Positions 3,129 through 11,967 of a DNA stretch of 57,883 nt are shown here, piece after piece. Location of the stretch: positions 1 to 57,883 of the IMG/VR virus record IMGVR_UViG_3300028025_002279; one strand, 5' to 3'. The position numbers were made by a program, and so were the translations under genes. Source of the DNA: a virus. Taxonomy: Duplodnaviria; Caudoviricetes. Below the pieces are notes generated by a model, which did not search any database, was not told where the DNA came from, and saw only the letters and a program-made list of their open reading frames with translations. Positions within the stretch are counted from its first letter, which is position 1. Each line of letters starts with the position of its first letter.

Positions 3129-3156
3129 GGGTGGGCAAATGCTCACCCTTTTTTTT
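3129..3156 (+). terminator. intrinsic terminator
   Basis: GGGTGGGC/GCTCACCC stem followed by T8. Confidence 0.85.
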
Positions 3157-3174
3157 ACCTCCAATTCATTCATC

Positions 3175-3252
3175 ATGAAAAAGCTACTAATTGTCACAAT
3201 CTTCTATACAGCCATTGTATTATTCAACCTGCACGCATGGGGAATCATTTAA
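3175..3252 (+). CDS. hydrophobic peptide (25 aa)
   Basis: MKKLLIVTIFYTAIVLFNLHAWGII. Confidence 0.4.
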   Translation: MKKLLIVTIFYTAIVLFNLHAWGII

Positions 3253-3322
3253 AACAGCATATTCTTTGCAACATTAACAAAGTTTTAACTAGTGTTTAAC
3301 TTTTCTTTAAGAACTCAAGCAG

Positions 3323-3330
3323 TAATTTTG
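3323..3330 (+). promoter_or_regulatory. Bacteroidota -7 promoter element
   Basis: TAATTTTG upstream of the ORF at 3353. Confidence 0.6.
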
Positions 3331-3352
3331 CCAATAATCAAAAACATATATC

Positions 3353-3529
3353 ATGAAAAGTAAAATCATTTCTCACATTGCTGTAGAAGAACTTTATTCA
3401 GACCAAGATGGTTGGTGGATTGTATTGAAAGATGGATACAATTATTTTGGATGCTGCTCATTTAGGGAGGATTCCTTAAGAAGACTATACGACTCACTAT
3501 CTCAAGTTAAAATTGGAAACCCTTATTAA
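3353..3529 (+). CDS. small hypothetical protein (58 aa)
   Basis: hand-translated MKSKIISH...GNPY. Confidence 0.6.
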   Translation: MKSKIISHIAVEELYSDQDGWWIVLKDGYNYFGCCSFREDSLRRLYDSLSQVKIGNPY

Positions 3530-3541
3530 AAAAAACACATT

Positions 3542-3676
3542 ATGAAACCAAACGAATTAAGAATGCTAGTCATTAAGAACTTTATTGAGTACTACACTAG
3601 CGATGAAAAAGAACGTCTTGAAATGTTAGAAGTGGCTATGAACTATTGCGAAGAGGTCGAAGTAGAATTTGAATAA
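3542..3676 (+). CDS. small acidic protein (44 aa)
   Basis: hand-translated MKPNELRM...VEFE. Confidence 0.6.
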   Translation: MKPNELRMLVIKNFIEYYTSDEKERLEMLEVAMNYCEEVEVEFE

Positions 3677-3692
3677 CCATAAAACATAACAC

Positions 3693-3884
3693 ATGAAAAT
3701 AGATATGACAAAAGGCTCAAAGAAATTGCTATTAAAATTTATAAAAGATAGCAAGGATTTAAGGGTTAAGTTTATTGAATCAGAATCTTTTGAAGAATTC
3801 TACCCAATAATTTTTGAAGTATTTGAATTTACCGATGCTCAGTTGGAGGAGGTAAAATTTGATTTCCTAAAAAGAAGAATATAA
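3693..3884 (+). CDS. hypothetical protein
   Basis: 63-aa ORF. Confidence 0.65.
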   Translation: MKIDMTKGSKKLLLKFIKDSKDLRVKFIESESFEEFYPIIFEVFEFTDAQLEEVKFDFLKRRI

Positions 3885-3908
3885 AAATTCTTCACTAAAA
3901 CAAATACT

Positions 3909-4208
3909 ATGAGCGCAGAACTACAAATGAGAACACTATTCAATGTATACTACGAACAATGTCCTCACGAGAGGATAAGGTATACAGCATCTGAATTCAG
4001 AGACAATCACCTTCAGTCTTGGATTGTCATGAATGGTATAGAGCTGTGTTACATGATGTATCAAGGTAAGCATCAATATATCTTCATGTGTAATAGATAT
4101 TGCCCTAAGCTAGGAGATGAAACATACTACTTTAAGACATATGAAGAGTGTAGCAAAGTTCTAAACATGGCAGAAGAAGAACTTATTGAATACGCATATT
4201 CTCTATAA
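3909..4208 (+). CDS. hypothetical protein
   Basis: 99-aa ORF. Confidence 0.7.
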   Translation: MSAELQMRTLFNVYYEQCPHERIRYTASEFRDNHLQSWIVMNGIELCYMMYQGKHQYIFMCNRYCPKLGDETYYFKTYEECSKVLNMAEEELIEYAYSL

Positions 4209-4225
4209 CAATAAAAATCAAACAC

Positions 4226-4624
4226 ATGAAACTTTACAACAGACAGTTAGAATCACTGAAGAAAATTATCTACGAACATTTAAAATCTCAGCCCGATGTA
4301 GAAATCGGTGACCTTAACAATTGCGTAGAAGAGGCTGACTATATTGTCAGAGAGTGGAAGATGAAACATAATATAGAAGTTATGTTTGACGAGACATCTA
4401 ACAAGCACTGCAATGATGTTGACGGAAACATACTTAATGTTGGTGATTATGTTATAGCTCTTGACGTCGATGACCTTCATGATTGTGACCTAGTTAGGGG
4501 AGACGTATTAATAGTTACTAATATAGATGACCCCGTATCAAACTATATAATATTTAGAAAAGATGAGGATGAAAAAGAATATGGATTCTATGGACATAGG
4601 GTACTAAGATTCAAACATCAATAA
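4226..4624 (+). CDS. hypothetical protein, possible C-terminal SH3-like barrel
   Basis: 132 aa; D.DGN.L.VGD.V pattern. Confidence 0.7.
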   Translation: MKLYNRQLESLKKIIYEHLKSQPDVEIGDLNNCVEEADYIVREWKMKHNIEVMFDETSNKHCNDVDGNILNVGDYVIALDVDDLHDCDLVRGDVLIVTNIDDPVSNYIIFRKDEDEKEYGFYGHRVLRFKHQ

Positions 4625-4634
4625 ACAATAAATC

Positions 4635-4850
4635 ATGAAACCATTAACAGCACAAAAGTTATTCGAATTACTTAACGAGTTAAAGATTGACGGCTACGAC
4701 CTAGAGAAGGTAACCATCAACTACCGAACTGACTCAGACTCAGACGTTGAGGTAATCACCTATGTTGGAGATGACCTATATGACGCAGAGACAAACAGCG
4801 TGTTAGAGTCTATTGTACTTATGGCAGACGCATCAGATTATGAACAATAA
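4635..4850 (+). CDS. hypothetical acidic protein
   Basis: 71-aa ORF. Confidence 0.7.
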   Translation: MKPLTAQKLFELLNELKIDGYDLEKVTINYRTDSDSDVEVITYVGDDLYDAETNSVLESIVLMADASDYEQ

Positions 4851-4862
4851 AAAACAAATATC

Positions 4863-5069
4863 ATGAATAATCAACACGAAGTAACAATCAATGCAGTAGA
4901 GCTAGCTTGTATCCTTGCAGAGGAGGAGCTAAATGACAATCATGGAGACTATATGCAAATCTATGTAGAAGATGATGAGGAGTCAACCTATACCGATGAA
5001 GCTCAGAAGATGTTCGATGAGCTGTACGACTACTACATGGAATTAATTAACGGAACTAAAGTAAAATAG
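4863..5069 (+). CDS. hypothetical acidic protein
   Basis: 68-aa ORF, very D/E-rich. Confidence 0.7.
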   Translation: MNNQHEVTINAVELACILAEEELNDNHGDYMQIYVEDDEESTYTDEAQKMFDELYDYYMELINGTKVK

Positions 5070-5070
5070 T

Positions 5071-5298
5071 ATGAACAATCCACATCAGTACAACTACACA
5101 CAACAGCTAGAGCATAGGCTCAGAATGGTTGAAGATGACTTGCATATATTGAAAAAGTTCATATTCGATAACAATCTAGCTAACGTATTTGACAAGTCAA
5201 CGTCTACATGTGACTCTGCTTGGTCTAATATAGTCAACATAGAAGTTGCATGCGACCTTAATGACGATACATCTCTGACTTGGGGAATGTTCCTATAA
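5071..5298 (+). CDS. hypothetical protein
   Basis: 75-aa ORF. Confidence 0.7.
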   Translation: MNNPHQYNYTQQLEHRLRMVEDDLHILKKFIFDNNLANVFDKSTSTCDSAWSNIVNIEVACDLNDDTSLTWGMFL

Positions 5299-5310
5299 AT
5301 AACTAAACAT

Positions 5311-5451
5311 ATGAATACTATTACATTTCTAGAAGAGACAAAGAAAAGCCTAATAGGTAAGAAAATTATAGACGTAGGAGATAACTACATCGAGCTGGAT
5401 GATGGATGTAGGATATACATATCGGAAGATGAAATCAATTTCTTAAACTAA
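5311..5451 (+). CDS. small hypothetical protein (46 aa)
   Basis: hand-translated MNTITFLEE...NFLN. Confidence 0.6.
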   Translation: MNTITFLEETKKSLIGKKIIDVGDNYIELDDGCRIYISEDEINFLN

Positions 5452-5462
5452 AAACAAATATC

Positions 5463-5708
5463 ATGAACTACAATTTCTTTCTATTCTGCAAGCTTTACGA
5501 TGTAATGATTGGTGTAGACTACTACTACGATGTGCTGTTCGAAGACCTTAAGGAACTATACAATAAGTTTGCGGATAGCGACTACAACAACCCGAACATG
5601 GGAACTTATGAGTGTATTGAGACGTACTTAAAAGATAACCATGCAGACATCATTAATAAATTCACAAGACAGCAGGAGAGTCTTGGCATAAAACACATAA
5701 ACGCATAA
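5463..5708 (+). CDS. hypothetical protein
   Basis: 81-aa ORF. Confidence 0.7.
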   Translation: MNYNFFLFCKLYDVMIGVDYYYDVLFEDLKELYNKFADSDYNNPNMGTYECIETYLKDNHADIINKFTRQQESLGIKHINA

Positions 5709-5711
5709 ACT

Positions 5712-5882
5712 ATGGCAAAGAAAACTTCTATCAGAGAACATCTTATTGACGCAATCCTTGAACTATCGGTTGATGAGTTCGAGTCTGAGCAGGACTTGAT
5801 AAAGCTGGCAAAGGAATCAGAGGAGGAACTAGTCTACCGAATTGTAGACATTGCGGAATACTATAAGGAACAAACCATATAG
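5712..5882 (+). CDS. small acidic protein (56 aa)
   Basis: hand-translated MAKKTSIRE...EQTI. Confidence 0.65.
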   Translation: MAKKTSIREHLIDAILELSVDEFESEQDLIKLAKESEEELVYRIVDIAEYYKEQTI

Positions 5883-5883
5883 T

Positions 5884-5970
5884 ATGCAGAAGATAACTAT
5901 GTGGCTGTCCATATTTTGGGCAGCCCTTCTTACAATCATCATAATCCTAAACATAAAAGAAAAAAAATGA
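5884..5970 (+). CDS. single-TM peptide (28 aa)
   Basis: MQKITMWLSIFWAALLTIIIILNIKEKK; ATGA overlap with the next gene. Confidence 0.5.
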   Translation: MQKITMWLSIFWAALLTIIIILNIKEKK

Positions 5971-6173
5971 GCAACTTAAAATTCTACGTTATCAACCTTA
6001 GACTTCTGGATGAAGACGATGCTAGCCTAGACTTTGGCAACATGCCAAACTATGAGTTTATGACCATAGCGGCAAAGTATGGAGAAGTATATTCACCTAC
6101 ATCATTTGAGAACTTAATTAACAACGATGACTTCGATGCTGTCAACTGCTTCATCAGAATCATTGAAGATTAA
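5967..6173 (+). CDS. hypothetical protein
   Basis: start moved to the ATG at 5967 (MSNLKFY). Confidence 0.7.
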   Translation: MSNLKFYVINLRLLDEDDASLDFGNMPNYEFMTIAAKYGEVYSPTSFENLINNDDFDAVNCFIRIIED

Positions 6174-6205
6174 TTTGTTTGATAACAAACATTTAACTAA
6201 CTTTG
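6174..6205 (+). promoter_or_regulatory. Bacteroidota sigma70 promoter (-33 TTTG, -7 TAACTTTG), near-leaderless
   Basis: TTTG 6174-77, 20-nt spacer, TAACTTTG 6198-6205, ATG 4 nt later. Confidence 0.75.
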
Positions 6206-6209
6206 AACA

Positions 6210-6437
6210 ATGATTAACAAACTAATTGAAATTAACGACCAACGCAGTGCTAAACTTATGGTTGCCTGCGGACAGCTAGGTGCATACCAATCAATGATTA
6301 TATATGCTATAAAATGTCTCAATGGTAAGACTATAGCAGATGCTGAATCAGTAGCAAAGTATCTTGAAGAAAAACAAGATGAACTAATTAAAGAACAAGA
6401 TTTATTAATATTTAAAACGCACAACTATGAACTATAG
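6210..6437 (+). CDS. hypothetical protein
   Basis: 75-aa ORF. Confidence 0.7.
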   Translation: MINKLIEINDQRSAKLMVACGQLGAYQSMIIYAIKCLNGKTIADAESVAKYLEEKQDELIKEQDLLIFKTHNYEL

Positions 6438-6672
6438 AGTAATTGGTGAGCGAATAATGAATGCTCACGACGATAACCAAGTTGATAGACATGAGTCTGC
6501 ATTTACTTCATATACAGATGCAGTAGACTACTATATATCTACAGTGTCTCAGGTAGTTGAAGACATGGCTGACTTAGGTGGTGACTTTGTCTGCACACTA
6601 GTATGCGACAAGGATGATGATACTGTAGAAGTAATGAAGAGACATGTAATATCTACAACTGTATTGTTATGA
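6427..6672 (+). CDS. hypothetical protein
   Basis: 81-aa ORF. Confidence 0.7.
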   Translation: MNYRVIGERIMNAHDDNQVDRHESAFTSYTDAVDYYISTVSQVVEDMADLGGDFVCTLVCDKDDDTVEVMKRHVISTTVLL

Positions 6673-6914
6673 CGAATATAGAGAAACTAAAGTTTGCTGT
6701 TGACATATTATCTTCCCTAGTGGAGGCTAACTATGACAAGGCAGATGAATTTAAAAACATACAGCTAATTGCTGAACTAAATTGGAAGTCTATACCACAA
6801 GCGTATAAGTTTCAAAAATCAGTTATAGCATCAGCAACAAGAACTGATATCTATAAACTAAATTCAACAATAGTAATCGACATAAGAGATGTTGGATTAT
6901 TTCAAATAATGTGA
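6669..6914 (+). CDS. hypothetical protein
   Basis: 81-aa ORF, ATGA overlap. Confidence 0.65.
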   Translation: MTNIEKLKFAVDILSSLVEANYDKADEFKNIQLIAELNWKSIPQAYKFQKSVIASATRTDIYKLNSTIVIDIRDVGLFQIM

Positions 6915-7291
6915 GCATGAATGCATATGTAATCCCCGGCCTTAAGCATAGAGATGTAACAAAGCAATACTTCGTACAAAAGAGAGGTATACCAATACAG
7001 GTAGTAATAGAAGAAGCATGTAAGGTTTTCAATGCAGACCCAGATAAAATACCAAAGAAAACTAGAGCTCAAGAGGTAGTAAACGTAAGGCATTTCGTAT
7101 CTTGGTTCTTAGTAAAGCAGATGGGTATGACATTGAAAGCTGTTGGTGTTGATGTATTAGGAGGTAGAGACCACACTACCGTAATTAACAGCATAAGGAA
7201 GTTTTCTAATCTATACGATACGGAAGAGATGTTCAAAGATAATTCAAATTTAATAGTAGAAAACTTAATGTCATGGACAAAGAAACTTTAG
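6911..7291 (+). CDS. stand-alone DnaA C-terminal (domain IV) HTH protein
   Basis: R..EVV..RH, then LKAVG...LGGRDHTTVINSIRK (DnaA signature GGRDHTTV). Confidence 0.85.
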   Translation: MSMNAYVIPGLKHRDVTKQYFVQKRGIPIQVVIEEACKVFNADPDKIPKKTRAQEVVNVRHFVSWFLVKQMGMTLKAVGVDVLGGRDHTTVINSIRKFSNLYDTEEMFKDNSNLIVENLMSWTKKL

Positions 7292-7560
7292 TGTCAGTAA
7301 TAGCAGAAGTATTTGATGTAGAGAAAGACTTTATGAATAGGAAAGTTAGGAAGAGGAGGTATACATATCCAAAGAAGGCACTATGTATGTACCTATACAA
7401 TAATACAGAGCAAACGTATGAGTACATTGCAGAGTATATGGGATTTAAGAATCATACTTGTGCACTATACCATGTAAGGAGTGGACAAAACCTATACGAT
7501 ACATTTGAACCATTTACAAAGAAGCTTGACATTGTATACGAAAAACTAAGAGAACTATGA
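7273..7560 (+). CDS. second DnaA domain-IV-like HTH protein
   Basis: VIAEVFDV...RKRRYTYPK..CMYL...TYEYIAEYMGFKNHTCALYH parallels DnaA domain IV. Confidence 0.65.
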   Translation: MDKETLVSVIAEVFDVEKDFMNRKVRKRRYTYPKKALCMYLYNNTEQTYEYIAEYMGFKNHTCALYHVRSGQNLYDTFEPFTKKLDIVYEKLREL

Positions 7561-7892
7561 CTGATGGACAAAGAGAATCAATCTACATTATATACGTAAA
7601 TGTATGTAATGCTTTAACCTATGCAGAGGTAATGCTTAATGATGATGTATCTAAATCCGTTAAGGACACTATACGTGTATATAGGGATAGACTTAGGTGG
7701 ATTAAGAGAAGTATGGACATGAAGGTGGGTACTGATAATTCTATGGATGTAGACATCCTAAGATTTGATGGACTAGTGAGGCTGTTATCTTCTATGCCGG
7801 AACAATACGCAGATAGATTGGAAAACCATATAATCAAGTTCCTTGAAGACTTAGATGAAGAATTAAAAAGTGGGGACGTTCCCGTCCCCTAA
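7557..7892 (+). CDS. hypothetical protein
   Basis: 111-aa ORF. Confidence 0.7.
   Translation: MTDGQRESIYIIYVNVCNALTYAEVMLNDDVSKSVKDTIRVYRDRLRWIKRSMDMKVGTDNSMDVDILRFDGLVRLLSSMPEQYADRLENHIIKFLEDLDEELKSGDVPVP
7864..7890 (-). terminator. intrinsic terminator of the inverted holin-like gene
   Basis: minus strand GGGGACG-GGAA-CGTCCCC followed by ACTTTTT. Confidence 0.75.
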
Positions 7893-7894
7893 CT

Positions 7895-8053
7895 TTACTT
7901 CTTTACAGATACAGACCAAATGGCTCCGATAAGAGTCATCACTGCACCAATAACTTCAACAATCAAAGATTCGTCTATAAGACCTTTTGATACTGCAAGG
8001 CCACCAACGAATGTCAATGCGTGTCTGATAAGACCTGTTAATTTTTCTTTCAT
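7895..8053 (-). CDS. two-TM holin-like protein (Pam3-gp28-like), 52 aa
   Basis: hand-translated MKEKLTGLIRHALTFVGGLAVSKGLIDESLIVEVIGAVMTLIGAIWSVSVKK; has its own promoter and terminator. Confidence 0.75.
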   Translation of the reverse strand: MKEKLTGLIRHALTFVGGLAVSKGLIDESLIVEVIGAVMTLIGAIWSVSVKK

Positions 8054-8067
8054 AAAAAACATTTTGA

Positions 8068-8075
8068 CAAATTTA
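8068..8075 (-). promoter_or_regulatory. -7 promoter element
   Basis: TAAATTTG on the minus strand, 14 nt before ATG 8053. Confidence 0.7.
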
Positions 8076-8129
8076 ATTACTTTTTTTTAGAGGATATATT
8101 AATTTCATAACCAATTAAAAATCAATGAC

Positions 8130-8372
8130 ATGACTCCAATGCAAAAGTTACAAGCAGAGTTTATGAATCTCAGAAACATTCCAGATAATGAGAGGAACTA
8201 TCTGATAAATCTAATATCAGAACTAATTGATGAAGAGAAGTTAGTTATCATGAAGTCTTATGCTGATGGTATAGAGGCACTGAGAAAGTCTATAACAACT
8301 GACGAATTGTATAACAGCTACTTAGAATACTACAACCAAAAACAATATAATGTTCACAACAAAGTTTATTAG
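8130..8372 (+). CDS. hypothetical protein
   Basis: 80 aa; MTPMQ.L...EK..I..SY pattern common in Bacteroidota phages. Confidence 0.7.
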   Translation: MTPMQKLQAEFMNLRNIPDNERNYLINLISELIDEEKLVIMKSYADGIEALRKSITTDELYNSYLEYYNQKQYNVHNKVY

Positions 8373-8601
8373 ACTACCGATACGAGTGTATAACAAGGAT
8401 ATGATGGATGTTGCAGGCGTATCTGAGGAGATTGATACCTACGAGATGGTAAACCCATTTCATATATCTTCCTATAGGCCTTCACAAGAGCCGGAAGGAT
8501 GTACCTACATATCATTCAAGGACGGCACTGGTATGATGGTATATATGGAGATAGAAGAGTTCGAGAGGTACATGGATTCACATAAAATATTTAAACAATA
8601 A
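8350..8601 (+). CDS. hypothetical protein (FlbD-like pattern)
   Basis: VNP.HI..Y...T.I.F.DG...V...IEE. Confidence 0.6.
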   Translation: MFTTKFIRLPIRVYNKDMMDVAGVSEEIDTYEMVNPFHISSYRPSQEPEGCTYISFKDGTGMMVYMEIEEFERYMDSHKIFKQ

Positions 8602-8604
8602 CAC

Positions 8605-8805
8605 ATGACTAATTCGCATTTCGCAAATCAAAATCACTACGATAGGATGCTGTTCATAGCAAGACTACACCACGCTATATGGCATGACCAAGATACCTAC
8701 AATCGTGTAGAAGACATAGTAAAGTCAGTAGAGAATAAACTACCACAAGCTAAATACTTTAACCATGAAGACAATATACATACTAGCTCCAATAATGATA
8801 GGTGA
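8605..8805 (+). CDS. hypothetical protein
   Basis: 66-aa ORF. Confidence 0.65.
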   Translation: MTNSHFANQNHYDRMLFIARLHHAIWHDQDTYNRVEDIVKSVENKLPQAKYFNHEDNIHTSSNNDR

Positions 8806-9061
8806 GAGTCTAATACACCAATACACAGCTGTTAAGGATAATAACACTACCATATTGTCAACATCTGATGACCCTACATGGAATGAGAAAGGTGTTCTAT
8901 GCACTATAACTGATGATGGTAATGGTGTAGAGATAAAGCTAGGAAAGAATAAACCACTATACCTAGACTATGCTCAGGAGGAAGAGCTTTTGTCAGCACT
9001 ACTATCCAATAGGGATGAACAGCTAAGACTAATACACATAGATAAAACTATAGAGATATGA
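8765..9061 (+). CDS. hypothetical protein
   Basis: 98-aa ORF. Confidence 0.7.
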   Translation: MKTIYILAPIMIGESLIHQYTAVKDNNTTILSTSDDPTWNEKGVLCTITDDGNGVEIKLGKNKPLYLDYAQEEELLSALLSNRDEQLRLIHIDKTIEI

Positions 9062-9600
9062 TTATCGGAATCAATGGATATGCTGGTGTAGGAAAGGACG
9101 AGGTAGGAAAGCTAATCGTCAAACATGCGCCAACATTTAAGGTTAAGAAGTTTGCAGGTAAGCTCAAAGAGATAGCTACGATACTTACAGGTATACCTAG
9201 CCACTACTTTGAGTCTAGTACTTTTAAACAATCTAAGTTGGGAGGATGGGATATGTCAGTACGTGAGCTGTTACAGAGACTTGGTACGGAAGCTATTCGT
9301 GACGGGCTCCACCCTAATGCTTGGATAAATGCTCTGATGTCTGACTACATGAGAGGTGACGATTGGGTGATAACGGACATGAGGTTTCAGAATGAATACG
9401 ATACGATATGCTCCTATGGTGGCTACACTATACAAGTCTATAGAGCAGGAGTAAGGCCTCCTAACAATCACTCTTCTGAAGCAGGCATCACTAAGGGTTG
9501 CTTCGACTACATCATCGATAATTCTGGCACTCTTGAACAGCTAGAGGAAGAGGTTAAGAGAATCGTATCAGACATTATTGAAAAAGAAAAGAGAAGATGA
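9058..9600 (+). CDS. deoxynucleoside monophosphate kinase
   Basis: IIGING..G.GKD P-loop, FA..LKE, RELLQ.LGTE, ITD.RF.NE, H.SE, I.N.GTLE.L. Confidence 0.9.
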   Translation: MIIGINGYAGVGKDEVGKLIVKHAPTFKVKKFAGKLKEIATILTGIPSHYFESSTFKQSKLGGWDMSVRELLQRLGTEAIRDGLHPNAWINALMSDYMRGDDWVITDMRFQNEYDTICSYGGYTIQVYRAGVRPPNNHSSEAGITKGCFDYIIDNSGTLEQLEEEVKRIVSDIIEKEKRR

Positions 9601-9824
9601 GTACAATACACGAACTTAAGTCTACCATTCCTGTTCATACGCCACATGGTGTTGGAGAGGCTCTGATGATTATAGACTATGGACTAAATACAAATAGTGT
9701 TTGGGTTGTAAGGGTTAAAGGTGGAAGGGTACTGCACTACTACTCCGATGACATAAGAGTCTATGACAATCCTATGAATGGTGGTGGTTGGGATGTAGAC
9801 ATTCCAGAAGATTGGATAAAATAA
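9597..9824 (+). CDS. hypothetical protein
   Basis: 75 aa; V.TP.G.G.A...IDYG...N..WVV. Confidence 0.75.
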   Translation: MSTIHELKSTIPVHTPHGVGEALMIIDYGLNTNSVWVVRVKGGRVLHYYSDDIRVYDNPMNGGGWDVDIPEDWIK

Positions 9825-9826
9825 AT

Positions 9827-9857
9827 TTTGTAGTGTCAAACTATGTTCATAATTTTG
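9827..9857 (+). promoter_or_regulatory. Bacteroidota sigma70 promoter driving the non-coding region
   Basis: TTTG 9827-30, 19-nt spacer, TAATTTTG 9850-57. Confidence 0.8.
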
Positions 9858-9861
9858 TCCT

Positions 9862-9958
9862 GTCAATCCGATTGGATAGTTGCGTTGTTCACTCGGGTTT
9901 GATTTAAGAGAACCCTCTTTCATTGAACCCATACAGACGCAACCTGTGTGGGTTTTTT
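9862..9958 (+). ncRNA. ~95-nt leader/sRNA ending in a terminator whose loop pairs with the 5' region
   Basis: 11-bp stem 9926-36/9944-54 plus T-run; loop ACGCAAC is complementary to GTTGCGT 9879-85. Confidence 0.6.
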
Positions 9959-9960
9959 GT

Positions 9961-10310
9961 TTTGACTAGGGTCTTAGAACGGTTTCACCCCTGCTGTTGG
10001 TATCTAGATGCAGCTAATGAAAGATTACGAGTTCTTTAGAGAAAGCTATGTATGATTTGGACTAGGGGCTTGGCCTTTGTTGGCCAGCCCTCTGGAAGTG
10101 TTTTTCTACGTAGCAATATAGGTAAGACGAAAATCCATGCAATGTCCCTGACCTGACAACATGGTGCTGGAAGCTAGCAATAGTTCACATAGTCAAACGC
10201 CTACCGTCGCAGTAAACGGATACTCTAAATAGCACTGAAGTAGAAGAATACCCATAGTTCTACTGAAAATTGCAGGACCTAGTGTTTTCCAGCAGTAAAG
10301 GTCGAAGTGT
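9961..10310 (+). ncRNA. candidate large structured ncRNA (~350 nt)
   Basis: no ORF, multiple hairpins including a GCAA tetraloop, long-range end pairings. Confidence 0.55.
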
Positions 10311-10339
10311 ATCAATTAAGTAACTAAACCATCTATTAT

Positions 10340-10891
10340 ATGAAGCATCTATTCAAAGCATTATCAGACTTTCAGCAAGAAGTTCCTGTCATCCACAAGG
10401 ATACGCAAGGATACGGGTATAGCTACGCTGACCTACCAACTATCTTTACCATTATCAATCCTCTACTCAAGAAGCATGGTCTAGGATTTACACAGCCCAT
10501 CGTTGGTTCTGTTATACAGACCATAGTATTCCATGTAGAGTCCGGTGAGAGCATTACCTCCGAGATACAAATTCAAGAAGGTGTAGCTCTGAAAGGAATG
10601 AATGAATTCCAAGTATTAGGTAGCGGTATTACCTACCTCCGTAGATACGCATTATCTTCGATTCTAGGCATAGTAACCGATAAGGATACTGATGCAGCAG
10701 GAGAACAGATAAAGCCTGCTGTAGCGTCTACAAATGCGTCTGATGACAAGCCATGGCTAAATGAGTCAAATAAGGAGGCATGGGATAAGGTTGTATCGTC
10801 ACTGAAGAGTGGCTATACTATGACTGATGTCAGGAAGAAGTACAAGGTATCTAAACCTGTAGAGACTAAGCTATTGTCACTAATAAACTAA
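10340..10891 (+). CDS. erf: Erf-family ssDNA annealing protein
   Basis: Y.YADL..I...INPLL.KHGL, Q..GS.ITYLRRYAL..ILGI..D.D.DA. Confidence 0.9.
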   Translation: MKHLFKALSDFQQEVPVIHKDTQGYGYSYADLPTIFTIINPLLKKHGLGFTQPIVGSVIQTIVFHVESGESITSEIQIQEGVALKGMNEFQVLGSGITYLRRYALSSILGIVTDKDTDAAGEQIKPAVASTNASDDKPWLNESNKEAWDKVVSSLKSGYTMTDVRKKYKVSKPVETKLLSLIN

Positions 10892-10892
10892 T

Positions 10893-11041
10893 TGCGTTAT
10901 CGGTAACATTAAACCCTTGCACCTCAGCACTAAGGTTGGGTTAGACATAGGTATCCTGCTTATCTGTTTACTGATAACAGCACTCCTTCTGAAATATGCA
11001 GATAAGGATATCAAGTGGGAGGCTACTGCCAGAGTGTAGCA
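10893..11041 (+). ncRNA. candidate pseudoknotted RNA (~150 nt)
   Basis: stem 10896-906/10968-78 interleaved with stem 10950-67/10998-11012. Confidence 0.5.
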
Positions 11042-11046
11042 AAAAT

Positions 11047-11221
11047 AGTCAGGTGGCGGAAGGAGGATGGTGTCCATCCTCGTGGTAGACGCTAAGGGAG
11101 CAAGATAGAAAGTCCATAAACGGATTGCTTAAGGTACAAGTGGTTGGCCAGAAGCATATGTTACACCATTATAGCCTTTCCAGTGAAGACTTTCATACAG
11201 GTTCGAATCCTGTCTTGACTA
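11047..11221 (+). ncRNA. tRNA-like RNA with expanded D-loop and anticodon region; no assignable anticodon
   Basis: acceptor AGTCAGG/CTTGACT, D-arm GTGGCGGAA..TGGTAGACGC, T-arm ACAGG-TTCGAAT-CCTGT. Confidence 0.75.
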
Positions 11222-11246
11222 CTAAAACTTTTAAAAAACAAATAGT

Positions 11247-11426
11247 ATGGAACAGGAAAAAATTGAAACAGTACTACCCTTAGACACACCTTTTAACATC
11301 CAATTTAATTGGAAGGAGGAAGCAATTAAAGTTGAATTAGAGCATGGTGAGGATGTTTTAAAGCTAGCTACAATATTCTCTAATATGCTTACAGCAAACA
11401 ATATTCCTCACAAAGTAATAAAATAA
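11247..11426 (+). CDS. small hypothetical protein (59 aa)
   Basis: hand-translated MEQEKIETV...KVIK. Confidence 0.65.
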   Translation: MEQEKIETVLPLDTPFNIQFNWKEEAIKVELEHGEDVLKLATIFSNMLTANNIPHKVIK

Positions 11427-11431
11427 ACAAT

Positions 11432-11761
11432 ATGGAAAGGCTACAAATCAATTCATCATCAAGCGTAGGTTTAGCATCAACAGAACCAATCACATCTTCT
11501 AATCTATCTGGCTCAGGTATAACAAATTCATCTTACAGCAATCAGATTGTACCAAACCTTATGTTTAGAGAACCAACAAAGCAGGAGCTACTTATGAGGT
11601 ATAACATTAGCATAGAGTTTATTAATGTTGGATGCATAGTGTCTGTTGGATGTAAGAAGATAGCGTTCTCTAGTATAGAAGAAGCTATGAAAAGCATAAA
11701 TAAATATGTGAATAATCCTAAGCAGGAAGCTGAATATTGGGAAGGTATTTTTGGAAATTAA
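11432..11761 (+). CDS. hypothetical protein
   Basis: 109 aa; I.F...GC.V.VGCK.IAF. Confidence 0.75.
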   Translation: MERLQINSSSSVGLASTEPITSSNLSGSGITNSSYSNQIVPNLMFREPTKQELLMRYNISIEFINVGCIVSVGCKKIAFSSIEEAMKSINKYVNNPKQEAEYWEGIFGN

Positions 11762-11772
11762 AACTATAAACT

Positions 11773-11964
11773 ATGGCACAACAAATAGCGACAGTATCAT
11801 TATTCATATTCATTATAGTTCTGCAACATTTATATAATTGGTCTTGTAGAAAGATTTATGATAAACTTACAGACGATAGCGTACCATTACTACTTGCATT
11901 AACTACAGTTGTATTTGTGATAACACTTGCACTTTGTGAATTATTACTAGATATAAATAAATAA
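11773..11964 (+). CDS. hypothetical membrane protein
   Basis: two hydrophobic segments. Confidence 0.6.
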   Translation: MAQQIATVSLFIFIIVLQHLYNWSCRKIYDKLTDDSVPLLLALTTVVFVITLALCELLLDINK

Positions 11965-11967
11965 ACT

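Follow-up and report, generated by a model that had tools for sequence, protein, structure and literature searches.

Phage RNAs that resemble tRNA and have an unresolved role have been isolated cases since species 1 RNA of T4 (rnaC, 139 nt), which is expressed and which a passage of PMC9697503 still calls "of yet unknown function". A tRNA-like part joined to another body is also found in tmRNA, which is processed by RNase P according to a section of PMC3985003, in the YrlA type of Y RNA and in the engineered tRNA scaffolds. In one engineered case, described in a part of PMC5397188, an aptamer placed in the D-loop of E. coli tRNA-Tyr (positions 16-18) gave no stable expression, which suggests that a hairpin at 16/17 may disturb the fold or its recognition. 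Among 8,495 structures from IMG/VR a portion of PMC10690425 mentions "tRNA or tRNA-like" candidates, and its supplementary tables might list some of the elements treated here; a description of the family was not found in the literature.

The element which is the subject of this analysis lies in a stretch of 57,883 nucleotides of phage DNA, called the window in the following. The preliminary description had seen in it an intact acceptor stem, a class-II-type D-arm with an 8-bp perfect hairpin in its loop, an insert of about 75 nt with two stems in place of the anticodon loop, a hairpin in the variable arm, a perfect T-arm and no encoded CCA. All of these were located where they had been placed (Table 1). 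What had to be given up was the view of the element as a single curiosity, since it belongs to a large and modular family, the tRNA-Leu-framed phage RNAs. This family in freshwater phages is apparently undescribed. The explanation we prefer, and hold with moderate confidence, is that the locus encodes a non-decoding, tRNA-Leu-derived RNA which displays exchangeable structured modules and is processed like a tRNA.

Table 1. Positions of the parts of the element and of its upstream flank in the window
Feature	Position	Strand	Remark
Whole element	11047-11221	+	175-nt tRNA-shaped RNA gene
Upstream intergenic stretch common to relatives	10892-11046	+	variable cassette starts at its 3' edge
Acceptor stem, 5' strand AGTCAGG	11047-11053	+	AT at -2/-1
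U8, G9, D-stem 5' strand GCG (11056-58), G13 A14 A15 (GAA)	11054-11061	+	
D-loop insert, positions 16/17	11062-11083	+	22 nt, holds the 8-bp hairpin
D-loop hairpin GAGGATGG-TGT-CCATCCTC	11063-11070 / 11074-11081	+	perfect complementarity, loop UGU
G18 G19 U A G A, D-stem 3' strand CGC (11090-92), N26 (T)	11084-11093	+	
Anticodon-stem analogue AAGGG/CCTTT	11094-11098 / 11175-11179	+	5 pairs, one G-U
Insert replacing the anticodon loop	11099-11174	+	76 nt, two predicted hairpins
Predicted centre stem AGCAA/TTGCT	11099-11103 / 11125-11129	+	
Predicted centre stem AGTGGT/ACCATT	11139-11144 / 11165-11170	+	
Variable region	11180-11196	+	17 nt, possible small hairpin GTGAA (11183-87) / TTCAT (11192-96)
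T11196, U48 equivalent	11196	+	base preceding the T-stem
T-arm ACAGG-TTCGAAT-CCTGT	11197-11213	+	perfect
Acceptor stem, 3' strand CTTGACT	11214-11220	+	7 pairs with 11047-11053, one G-U
Discriminator A73; C74	11221; 11222	+	CTA after A73, CCA not encoded

The window copy retains what builds the top half and the elbow in class II tRNAs, namely the acceptor stem, U8, A14, A15 with U48, G18 G19 in the D-arm, and a T-arm whose UUCGAAU loop agrees with UUCRANY. Both ends of the D-loop (GAA and GGTAGA) are of the tRNA-Leu type. The anticodon arm and the variable arm have been replaced by a structured centre which differs between members. A 5-bp anticodon stem with a 7-nt loop and U33 is not present; the analogue of that stem, a feature absent from the preliminary description, encloses 76 nt, and an RNA without a 7-nt anticodon loop cannot decode.

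The centre of the window copy recurs in two other metagenome contigs, L269 and L270. Over 104 nt there are 6 substitutions, 4 of which are in predicted loops and none in either centre stem. Since only these 6 of 104 positions differ, no compensatory change is seen between the orthologues, and the two centre stems are predictions without support from covariation. The anticodon-stem analogue is identical in both orthologues; covariation neither supports nor contradicts its pairing. One substitution in L269 breaks a pair of the small hairpin in the variable region and another converts a G-U pair to A-U. It should be noted that the minimum free energy structure chooses for the centre an alternative long-range pairing of GAAAGTC (11108-14) with GACTTTC (11188-94), and that the folding energy of the whole element is weakly unusual (z = -1.88; 10 of 200 shuffles were as good).

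Standard tools either miss these genes or call them tRNAs with arbitrary anticodons, which matters for annotation. ARAGORN with default settings found no gene in the window and Rfam gave no match there at its gathering score; the Rfam tRNA model RF00005 aligned with the T-arm only (14 bits, where the gathering score is 29; E 6.5). Other family members score 30-50 bits on RF00005, with long inserts, and a search of 17 loci with Rfam returned only tRNA, tmRNA (1) and freshwater-1 (2). The default ARAGORN calls cover 35 of 201 pattern hits and their identities are scattered, including 2- and 4-base anticodons.

When introns are allowed, ARAGORN reads the window element as a tRNA-Val(tac) whose intron, 87 nt long, is at position 28. 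This would suit a tRNA interrupted by introns, from which the D-loop hairpin and the 76-nt centre are removed to give a decoding tRNA, and the 5-bp stem analogue that flanks the insert would fit as well. The same program, however, gave 7 amino-acid identities and intron sites from 28 to 37 for 13 family members, and at default stringency its intron-allowing search found nothing in 5 of the 13. Removal of the 76 nt would leave a stem without a loop. The insert is far below the size of a group I intron, and when E values up to 10 were admitted the window element still had no match among group I introns or other families of ribozymes, so that a group I intron host was rejected; bulge-helix-bulge splicing is not known to occur in bacteria. 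We consider the intron reading very improbable, and the splicing by which the preliminary description would have been refuted is rejected.

A covariance model built from 25 related elements, with the window sequence excluded (R2), gave a single match in the 57,883 bases of the window, exactly the element and over the full length of the model (104.2 bits, E 1.5e-26); the alignment behind R2 was fitted by an earlier model, R1, of whose 23 training rows the window element was one. The family is large. The exact 25-mer at the 3' end of the element occurs in 12 IMG/VR stretches and a degenerate 22-mer in at least 119, and among the matches listed 166 of 180 are preceded, at a distance of 65-182 nt, by a 5' acceptor strand that pairs completely, corresponding to 161 distinct elements. 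Of these 161 listed elements, 142 have a 3-bp D-stem and a loop containing GG. Canonical phage tRNA-Leu genes in related loci have an identical D-arm. A T before the T-stem is found in all 23 hairpin-type elements and in 122 of these 142 others, which fits an A15-U48 Levitt pair. Up to 10 elements occur in one record, in arrays, and 74 of 150 loci have true tRNAs nearby.

The frame also recurs in four freshwater or drinking-water metagenome runs, where its summed depth reaches thousands-fold: 32-377 in the 5' frame bin, 3,151-11,582 in the 3' frame bin and 0-40 in the centre bin. In the DNA contigs of three of the four runs the centre bin (11104-11170) had no cover, because the depth comes from other members with different centres, and this says nothing about the window copy. 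The 355-nt intergenic region and 20 kb of the window had no match in 50,697 GenBank phage records, none of which matched a typical family member with at least 80% coverage; the partial matches were D-arm and T-arm pieces of ordinary tRNAs and T4-like rnaC regions.

The pairing of the frame was examined in an alignment of 23 elements (A2), which had been found via the D-arm and also picked for a pairing acceptor. In this alignment 97.7% of cells pair, while shuffles reach 76.1% and slid partners 34-46%, and 18 of 23 pairs show double changes. All 7 acceptor pairs and 4 of the 5 T-stem pairs have changed on both sides, the 100% pairing of the acceptor being partly by construction since the elements were picked for it. 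Columns 11054-11061 do not vary in any of the 23, nor do columns 11084-11093, where GGTAGACGC was fixed by the search pattern. The frame is the most conserved part and keeps all the universal tertiary nucleotides; its high sequence identity could partly reflect recombination between copies beside selection on the RNA.

The D-loop hairpin played no part in the selection of sequences. Members of this subtype have an insert of 21-22 nt between A15 and G18 and the window copy is one of them. In A2 7 of the 8 pairs have changed on both sides and 93.5% of cells pair, where slid partners gave 34-46%, and the loop is TGT in 17 of 23 elements.

A decaying tRNA pseudogene, or the remnant of an attachment site whose sequence derives from a host tRNA 3' end, would explain why standard detectors reject the element, and phage attachment sites are often copies of tRNA 3' ends. 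The 24-mer at the 3' end of the element was found in 19 stretches from 185,579 species genomes, all of them metagenome-assembled contigs and none called as tRNA by ARAGORN, so the 3' end is not that of a host tRNA. No integrase was seen among the 20 largest ORFs of the window that were scanned. The frame is preserved in its two halves, which still pair, covariation is seen in helices, inserts are maintained as whole units, and a record may hold as many as 10 copies. All of this speaks against such an origin, to which we give hardly any credence. The homolog alignment proposed in the preliminary description as a check gives a conserved and covarying frame with conserved and covarying inserts in many phages, which is neither decay nor splicing, and the case it had made against simple decay is borne out.

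The centres are where the members differ. When 211 distinct elements (at least 90 nt) were clustered by centre, 176 clusters were obtained; the centres are almost wholly different and range from 17 to 130 nt across the family. No motif common to all 176 centre types was found, and the only sequences enriched in them were remnants of the D-arm and, in 13 of the 176, an additional GGTTCG. Centres fold modestly better than shuffled sequences (mean z -0.79; 20% of 127 centres below -1.64). Individual centre types nevertheless recur, in different frames and with compensatory changes; in alignment A4 these were seen in 14 of 44 pairs together with a conserved segment of about 30 nt. The complementarity of the window centre to its own genome is at chance level (best 11 nt, equalled in 95 of 100 shuffles).

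L269 combines the centre of the window copy with another D-loop hairpin and another acceptor (AATCAGG/CCTGATT), and in L270 a window-type centre occurs without any D-loop hairpin; orthologues of the window centre were found neither in related loci nor, with a 23-mer, in IMG/VR. Frame, optional hairpin at 16/17 and centre behave as three separate exchangeable modules. The preliminary description had suggested a tRNA scaffold, a decoy for tRNA-targeting defences or an RNase P/Z processing signal. The scaffold fits best, with centres kept as units while frames and hairpins are exchanged; the functions in all three suggestions are putative.

The decoy reading postulates that only the tRNA top half matters and that it titrates a host factor which recognises acceptor, T-arm or elbow, for example LeuRS, a defence nuclease that cleaves tRNA, or an enzyme of tRNA modification or processing. 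The missing anticodon loop would make the RNA uncleavable by anticodon nucleases. It agrees with the frame being the most conserved part, with all its tertiary nucleotides kept, with the presence or absence of the element in near-identical phages, as in an arms-race gene, and with the location of elements among phage tRNA arrays, for which the role proposed in a part of PMC10264068 includes countering tRNA-targeting defences. Titration by the top half does not explain why particular centres are about 94% identical across different frames, why centre helices covary and internal motifs are conserved, or why one phage record holds 10 different versions. The D-loop hairpin, which covaries and whose UGU loop is conserved, also indicates that a specific function has been added. 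We regard the decoy as unlikely.

The element lies between ORFs of the same strand, 155 nt past the erf stop and 25 nt before an ATG at 11247. No terminator-like site was found between it and the neighbouring ORFs; a scan upstream for promoters of the sigma-70 type, which does not cover promoters of the Bacteroidota type, gave nothing useful. The alignment with three related loci (L152-L154) is conserved until ...GTAGCAAA and diverges beyond. L152, with 99% Erf identity, has an empty site, while L153 and L154 (98%) have there an element of 115 nt whose D-arm and hairpin are the same and whose acceptor, T-stem and centre are different. A contig of metagenome run X2 joins 11044 to 11967 and skips the element (11045-11966 absent). 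Among 3,276 ORFs at 168 loci no conserved protein partner of the elements was found, the commonest neighbouring cluster occurring at 33 of the 168 loci and having no Pfam match.

This position could mean that the tRNA shape is cis-acting punctuation, a site for RNase P and 3'-end cleavage in a polycistronic early transcript, which separates erf from the small ORFs downstream and leaves a short A/U-rich leader for the next gene. In addition to the tight packing and the missing terminator, hairpin-type elements have an ORF of at least 40 aa starting with ATG 15-40 nt downstream in 11 of 26 cases and an ORF of at least 60 aa ending 4-25 nt upstream in 8 of 26. A cleavage signal, however, needs the shape only and gives no reason for conserved, covarying centres and a D-loop hairpin, nor for arrays of many different elements beside real tRNAs, which are such signals themselves. 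As the main function punctuation seems quite unlikely to us; it is compatible with the scaffold explanation as a side effect.

That the element is processed like a tRNA is indirectly suggested by the tight packing between same-strand ORFs and by flanks that match those of tRNAs. The base at -1 is T in 138 of 161 listed family members against 185 of 271 canonical tRNAs of the same loci, and C74 is present in 158 of 161 against 269 of 271. An encoded CCA is found in 4 of the 161 listed members, as compared to 32 of the 271 tRNAs.

The leucine identity elements of the E. coli set are A73, A15-U48, G18G19, A20a and the D/T tertiary pairs, and tRNA-Leu variants without anticodon and variable arms are still charged (both from a portion of PMC9976931). 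The window copy carries A73, A15-U48, G18 G19, A20a and the D/T tertiary pairs, with the hairpin placed between A15 and G18. As the frame keeps most of the identity set of an E. coli-type LeuRS, the window RNA may be bound or even charged by LeuRS; this is a sub-hypothesis which the scaffold model does not require. The discriminators count against general leucylation. Among 23 unbiased elements 17 have A and 4 have G, 6 of the 23 thus being without A73, and A73 is also what the tRNAs of these loci, taken together, most often have as discriminator (180 of 271).

The scaffold model can be put together as follows. The element would be transcribed with the early operon of the + strand and excised by the tRNA pathway of the host, RNase P cutting at 11047 and the 3' end being trimmed to C74 before CCA is completed. 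The L-shaped top half would give defined ends and stability, and the centre and the D-loop hairpin would be displayed as the working parts, most likely to bind a host or phage factor. The role would probably be an accessory one with fast turnover, e.g., in counter-defence or host takeover.

A more far-reaching version, which we put forward only tentatively, is that freshwater phages possess a natural "tRNA scaffold" system. In it a host-matured tRNA-Leu chassis, possibly leucylated and held by EF-Tu, would carry a recombining library of structured modules (centre and D-loop hairpin), each an aptamer or mimic directed against a different factor of the host or of a rival phage. If true, this would be an RNA-based counterpart of the gene cassettes for protein anti-defence. 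With one chassis in more than 100 uncultured phage contigs and nearly as many centres as copies, comparative analysis is feasible, and the family makes definite predictions: ends at +1 and C74, addition of CCA and possibly leucylation. Should the modules be working RNAs, phages would have a new class of accessory genes, one consisting of RNA.

Among known systems the element is close to a canonical class II tRNA-Leu (RF00005), including the tRNA-Leu genes encoded by phages in the related loci. Both have an acceptor of 7 bp, U8 and A15/U48, a D-stem of 3 bp whose loop is of the GAAUUGGUAGA type, UUCGAAU in the T-arm, A73, and flanks with U at -1 and C74. The element differs in having no 7-nt anticodon loop, and some members, including that of the window, have the D-loop hairpin. 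In a class II tRNA the anticodon arm plus the variable arm take up roughly 33-40 nt, to be compared with the 17-130 nt of the family centres. A tRNA of the selenocysteine type or of the 8/4 type was considered and rejected.

T4 species 1 RNA is likewise a phage RNA encoded beside tRNA genes, stable in its own case. Its T-arm is perfect (CCGGG-UUCGAAU-CCCGG), its 5' and 3' ends pair, and the centre between them is large and structured. Unlike the element it has no Leu-type D-arm and its acceptor stem is imperfect. Model R1 finds the tRNA-Leu of T4 (28.5 bits) but neither rnaC (L151:409-547) nor rnaD at E up to 1, and T4 has one such gene where the family is a diverse modular set. The tRNA-like domain of tmRNA resembles the element in joining acceptor and T-arm to a large body which is not tRNA. 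The element has U3-A70 in place of the G3-U70 alanine mark, a full D-arm and neither ORF nor pseudoknots, and is 175 nt long against about 350 nt; ARAGORN found no tmRNA in 13 family members and Rfam none in the window, and identity with tmRNA was rejected.

The YrlA RNAs of bacteria and phages are modular non-coding RNAs too, whose tRNA-like domain keeps D-arm, T-arm and Levitt pair. YrlA ends in a Ro60-binding stem and its "acceptor" is a closed stem-loop, whereas the ends of the element form an acceptor stem; with this difference in topology, and no match of the window element to Rfam Y RNA families, Y RNA identity seems improbable. No Ro60 was present among the 40 window ORFs scanned. The engineered tRNA scaffolds and aptamer-tRNA fusions share with the element a structured RNA placed in a tRNA body for stability and processing, and working modules in the phage RNAs would be a natural precedent for this method. 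The engineered scaffolds are man-made and keep the anticodon arm, whereas the natural family has a conserved hairpin at the very site in the D-loop where an engineered insert was not stably expressed.

The element belongs, with near certainty, to a large family of phage RNAs that are modular and built on a tRNA-Leu frame. The preliminary description saw a tRNA mimic with a hairpin in the D-loop and no anticodon loop; every feature it named is present where it was placed, and the observation now extends from one locus to a large family. The acceptor stem has 7 bp with one G-U, the D-arm is Leu-type with a 22-nt loop insert forming a perfect 8-bp hairpin, the T-arm carries UUCGAAU, and CCA is not encoded. 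At the anticodon-stem place AAGGG can pair with CCTTT (5 bp) to enclose a 76-nt insert, where a tRNA has a 7-nt loop. Neither ARAGORN nor Rfam calls the element. If introns are permitted, ARAGORN makes it a tRNA-Val interrupted at position 28 by an "intron" of 87 nt; applied to 13 family members, it returns seven amino-acid identities and places the intron at positions between 28 and 37. Such scatter is typical of forced fits, and the intron-bearing tRNA was rejected.

The exact 3' 25-mer of the element occurs in 12 IMG/VR stretches and a degenerate 22-mer of the family in at least 119. For 166 of the 180 matches listed for the pattern, a 5' acceptor strand that pairs perfectly lies 65-182 nt upstream, which gives 161 distinct elements; the other 14 lack it, some because the locus ends. 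The consensus among these matches is AGTCAGG-U-G-GCG-GAAUGGUAGA-CGC, then the centre (17-130 nt, median 54.5), then U-ACAGG-UUCGAAU-CCUGU-CCUGACU-A. The D-arm is that of canonical phage tRNA-Leu in the same loci and is unlike that of Ser or Tyr. Nearly every centre is distinct: when the 211 different elements that are 90 nt or longer were clustered by centre, 176 clusters resulted, 151 of them singletons. An extra GGTTCG is found in 13 of the 176 centre types. Counting matches of the family covariance model at E up to 1e-6, there are 10 copies in one 62-kb record, 4 in a 270-kb record (99% complete) and 1 in a 63-kb record (91% complete), as in the window. Ordinary tRNA genes lie nearby in half of the loci (74/150).

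The 3' 24-mer was found in only 19 stretches among 185,579 species genomes, all of them metagenome-assembled contigs and about half binned as Bacteroidota. This restriction indicates that the family is phage-borne, and a host tRNA identity of the element was rejected on the same search. No complete member was found in 50,697 GenBank phage records, and no description of the family in Rfam 15 or the literature searched, the supplements of PMC10690425 aside; it is apparently undescribed. Four DNA runs, from freshwater or drinking water, gave a summed depth of 32-377 on the 5' frame bin, 3,151-11,582 on the 3' frame bin and 0-40 on the centre bin, and many contigs join the frame halves across differing intervening letters.

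The hairpin in the D-loop is a genuine, recurring feature. A search in which only the two D-arm halves were fixed, with any 22 bases between, found 37 stretches. By our criteria the frame is complete in 26 of these; two more (L238 and L254) were recovered by the model, and the other 9 matched by chance, in unrelated sequence. Across 23 distinct complete elements, window included, both partners have changed in 7 of the 8 hairpin pairs, pairing holds in 93.5% of cells and the loop is UGU in 17 elements. The hairpin played no part in delimiting the elements. For the frame as a whole, pairing holds in 97.7% of cells, compared with 76.1% for shuffled sequences and 34-46% after the partner strands were slid; the acceptor and T-helix pairing is partly by construction, because these helices delimited the elements. 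In this unbiased set, 12 of the 23 have the acceptor AGTCAGG and the remainder have variants with compensating changes; as discriminator, 17 have A, 4 have G, one has U and one C, and U precedes the T-stem in all 23.

Frame, hairpin and centre are exchanged. The window's centre recurs in two metagenome contigs with 6 substitutions in 104 nt: L269 joins it to another hairpin, of 21 nt, and to the acceptor AATCAGG/CCTGATT; in L270 the D-loop is of ordinary Leu type and lacks a hairpin. The near relatives L153 and L154 (Erf identity 98%) carry at the same site a 115-nt element with the window's D-arm and hairpin; its acceptor (GGTTGGG/CCCAACC, G73), T-stem and centre are all different. A centre of this type is also found in L050, an unrelated locus, and the stems of the two differ by compensating changes. 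In L152 (Erf 99%) the site is empty, and a contig of metagenome run X2 skips 11045-11966; the element is accessory. Compensatory changes affect 14 of 44 predicted pairs in a four-member centre type, which has an invariant segment of about 30 nt, and 4 of 29 in a three-member type. These recombinations and compensations show that the three parts are shuffled independently and that selection maintains the centres. Near the arrays T5orf172/MUG113-domain proteins recur, and so does a cluster that is GIY-YIG-like by eye and has no Pfam match. They are reminiscent of the homing endonuclease SegB in the T4 tRNA cluster, and could drive the cassette shuffling.

The window is an entire IMG/VR virus record (57,883 bases, linear, estimated completeness 80%) of a tailed phage, with terminase, portal and structural genes on the - strand and Erf, PDDEXK nuclease, dNMP kinase, BT4734-like primase N-domain and DUF932 in an early region on the + strand. 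The element lies in a 355-nt gap, on the strand of all its neighbours, and no terminator-like site was found between erf and the 59-aa ORF. ARAGORN found no normal-sized tRNA in this phage.

Features of the window and of related loci (L numbers, IMG/VR or metagenome contigs)
Feature	Position (strand)	Remarks
Element	11047-11221(+)	175 nt
erf	10340-10891	
Intergenic region, ~150 nt	10892-11045	conserved in relatives with or without element; nested inverted repeats GTTATCGGTAA/TTACTGATAAC and CTTATCTG/CAGATAAG; could be regulatory or origin-like
59-aa ORF	11247-11426	no PHROG match; 62-aa look-alikes 3' of elements in L234 and L258; common pattern ...F.WK....KV.L..GED..K
11-nt segment TAGCCTTTCCA	11172-11182	part of the centre; perfectly complementary to 11433-11443
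ORF	11432-11761	start-codon region holds 11433-11443
ORF, 2,718 aa	32046-40202(-)	virion structural protein family match only at residues 1952-2541
93-nt family type	L003:2774-2866(-), L080:13264-13356(+), L268:8833-8925(-)	second T-arm-like hairpin (GGTCGGTTCGAGTCCGATG) instead of D-arm
155-168-nt family type	L025:587-742(-), L051:5302-5469(-), L110:836-992(+), L238:5819-5974(+)	acceptor TGTNNNG, G73; anticodon-arm-like hairpin, loop UCGUCUC; very long covarying arm with invariant ATATGGGTTGACCACAAAGCCGGC
freshwater-1 (RF02979)	L009:2073-2134(-), L006:1991-2053(-)	inside same phage tRNA arrays
tmRNA, phage-encoded	L084:553-939(-)	68.8 bits; adjoins three family elements
Extra normal-sized tRNA	L153:3468-3539(+)	44.5 bits on RF00005; ~150 nt after L153 element; L154 likewise
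Protein cluster near arrays	L119:3697-4263(+)	10 loci
Protein cluster near arrays	L015:398-1195(+)	12 loci

The flanks are those of the true tRNAs of the same loci. Among the matches listed, C74 is present in 158/161 family members (canonical tRNAs 269/271), an encoded CCA in 4/161 (32/271) and T at -1 in 138/161 (185/271). Hairpin-type elements are often operon-packed: 11 of 26 are followed after 15-40 nt (25 nt in the window) by the start of an ATG-initiated ORF of 40 aa or more, and 8 of 26 are preceded, at 4-25 nt, by the end of an ORF of 60 aa or more. Flanks and packing suggest, indirectly, that the tRNA pathway matures the elements out of transcripts shared with mRNAs. A punctuation role, the element serving as a processing signal, is a partly compatible alternative to the scaffold reading below.

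The upper half and elbow of the tRNA are conserved, the anticodon loop is absent, the added helices covary and the make-up is modular. The best-supported reading, to which we give about an even chance, is a scaffold. RNase P and the 3'-end pathway would mature the RNA and CCA would be completed; the L-shaped chassis would provide stability and defined ends, and the centre and the D-loop hairpin would be the specific working parts. No partner protein for the centres emerged from 3,276 ORFs in 168 loci, no common motif among the 176 centre types, no known RNA family (Rfam, 17 loci), and within the window no antisense target of its centre beyond chance. The 11-nt complementarity in the table is at chance level, equalled in 95 of 100 shuffles, and is not conserved in L153. 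A decoy role, the tRNA shape being presented to tRNA-targeting defences, is another partly compatible alternative.

The frame retains the LeuRS identity elements of E. coli type (A73, A15-U48, G18 G19, A20a and the D/T tertiary pairs). LeuRS is described as independent of anticodon and variable arm, a minimal tRNA-Leu without both still being charged (PMC9976931), so binding or charging of the frame by LeuRS is plausible. Against this count the absence of A73 in 6 of 23 relatives, its commonness across all tRNAs of these loci and the position of the hairpin between A15 and G18; in E. coli tRNA-Tyr an engineered insert at that site is reported as not tolerated (PMC5397188).

The frame is tRNA-Leu-derived, yet the defining decoding feature of a tRNA is missing. 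Among natural RNAs, T4 species 1 RNA (rnaC) comes nearest: it is stable, 139 nt long and encoded next to the tRNA genes of T4, its T-arm is perfect and its ends pair. Its function is given as still unknown in PMC9697503, and in the model test it is not homologous to the family. tmRNA and YrlA resemble the element in idea, a tRNA-like domain joined to another module, but differ in topology and hallmarks. The closest functional parallel is the engineered tRNA scaffold, as presented in PMC5397188.
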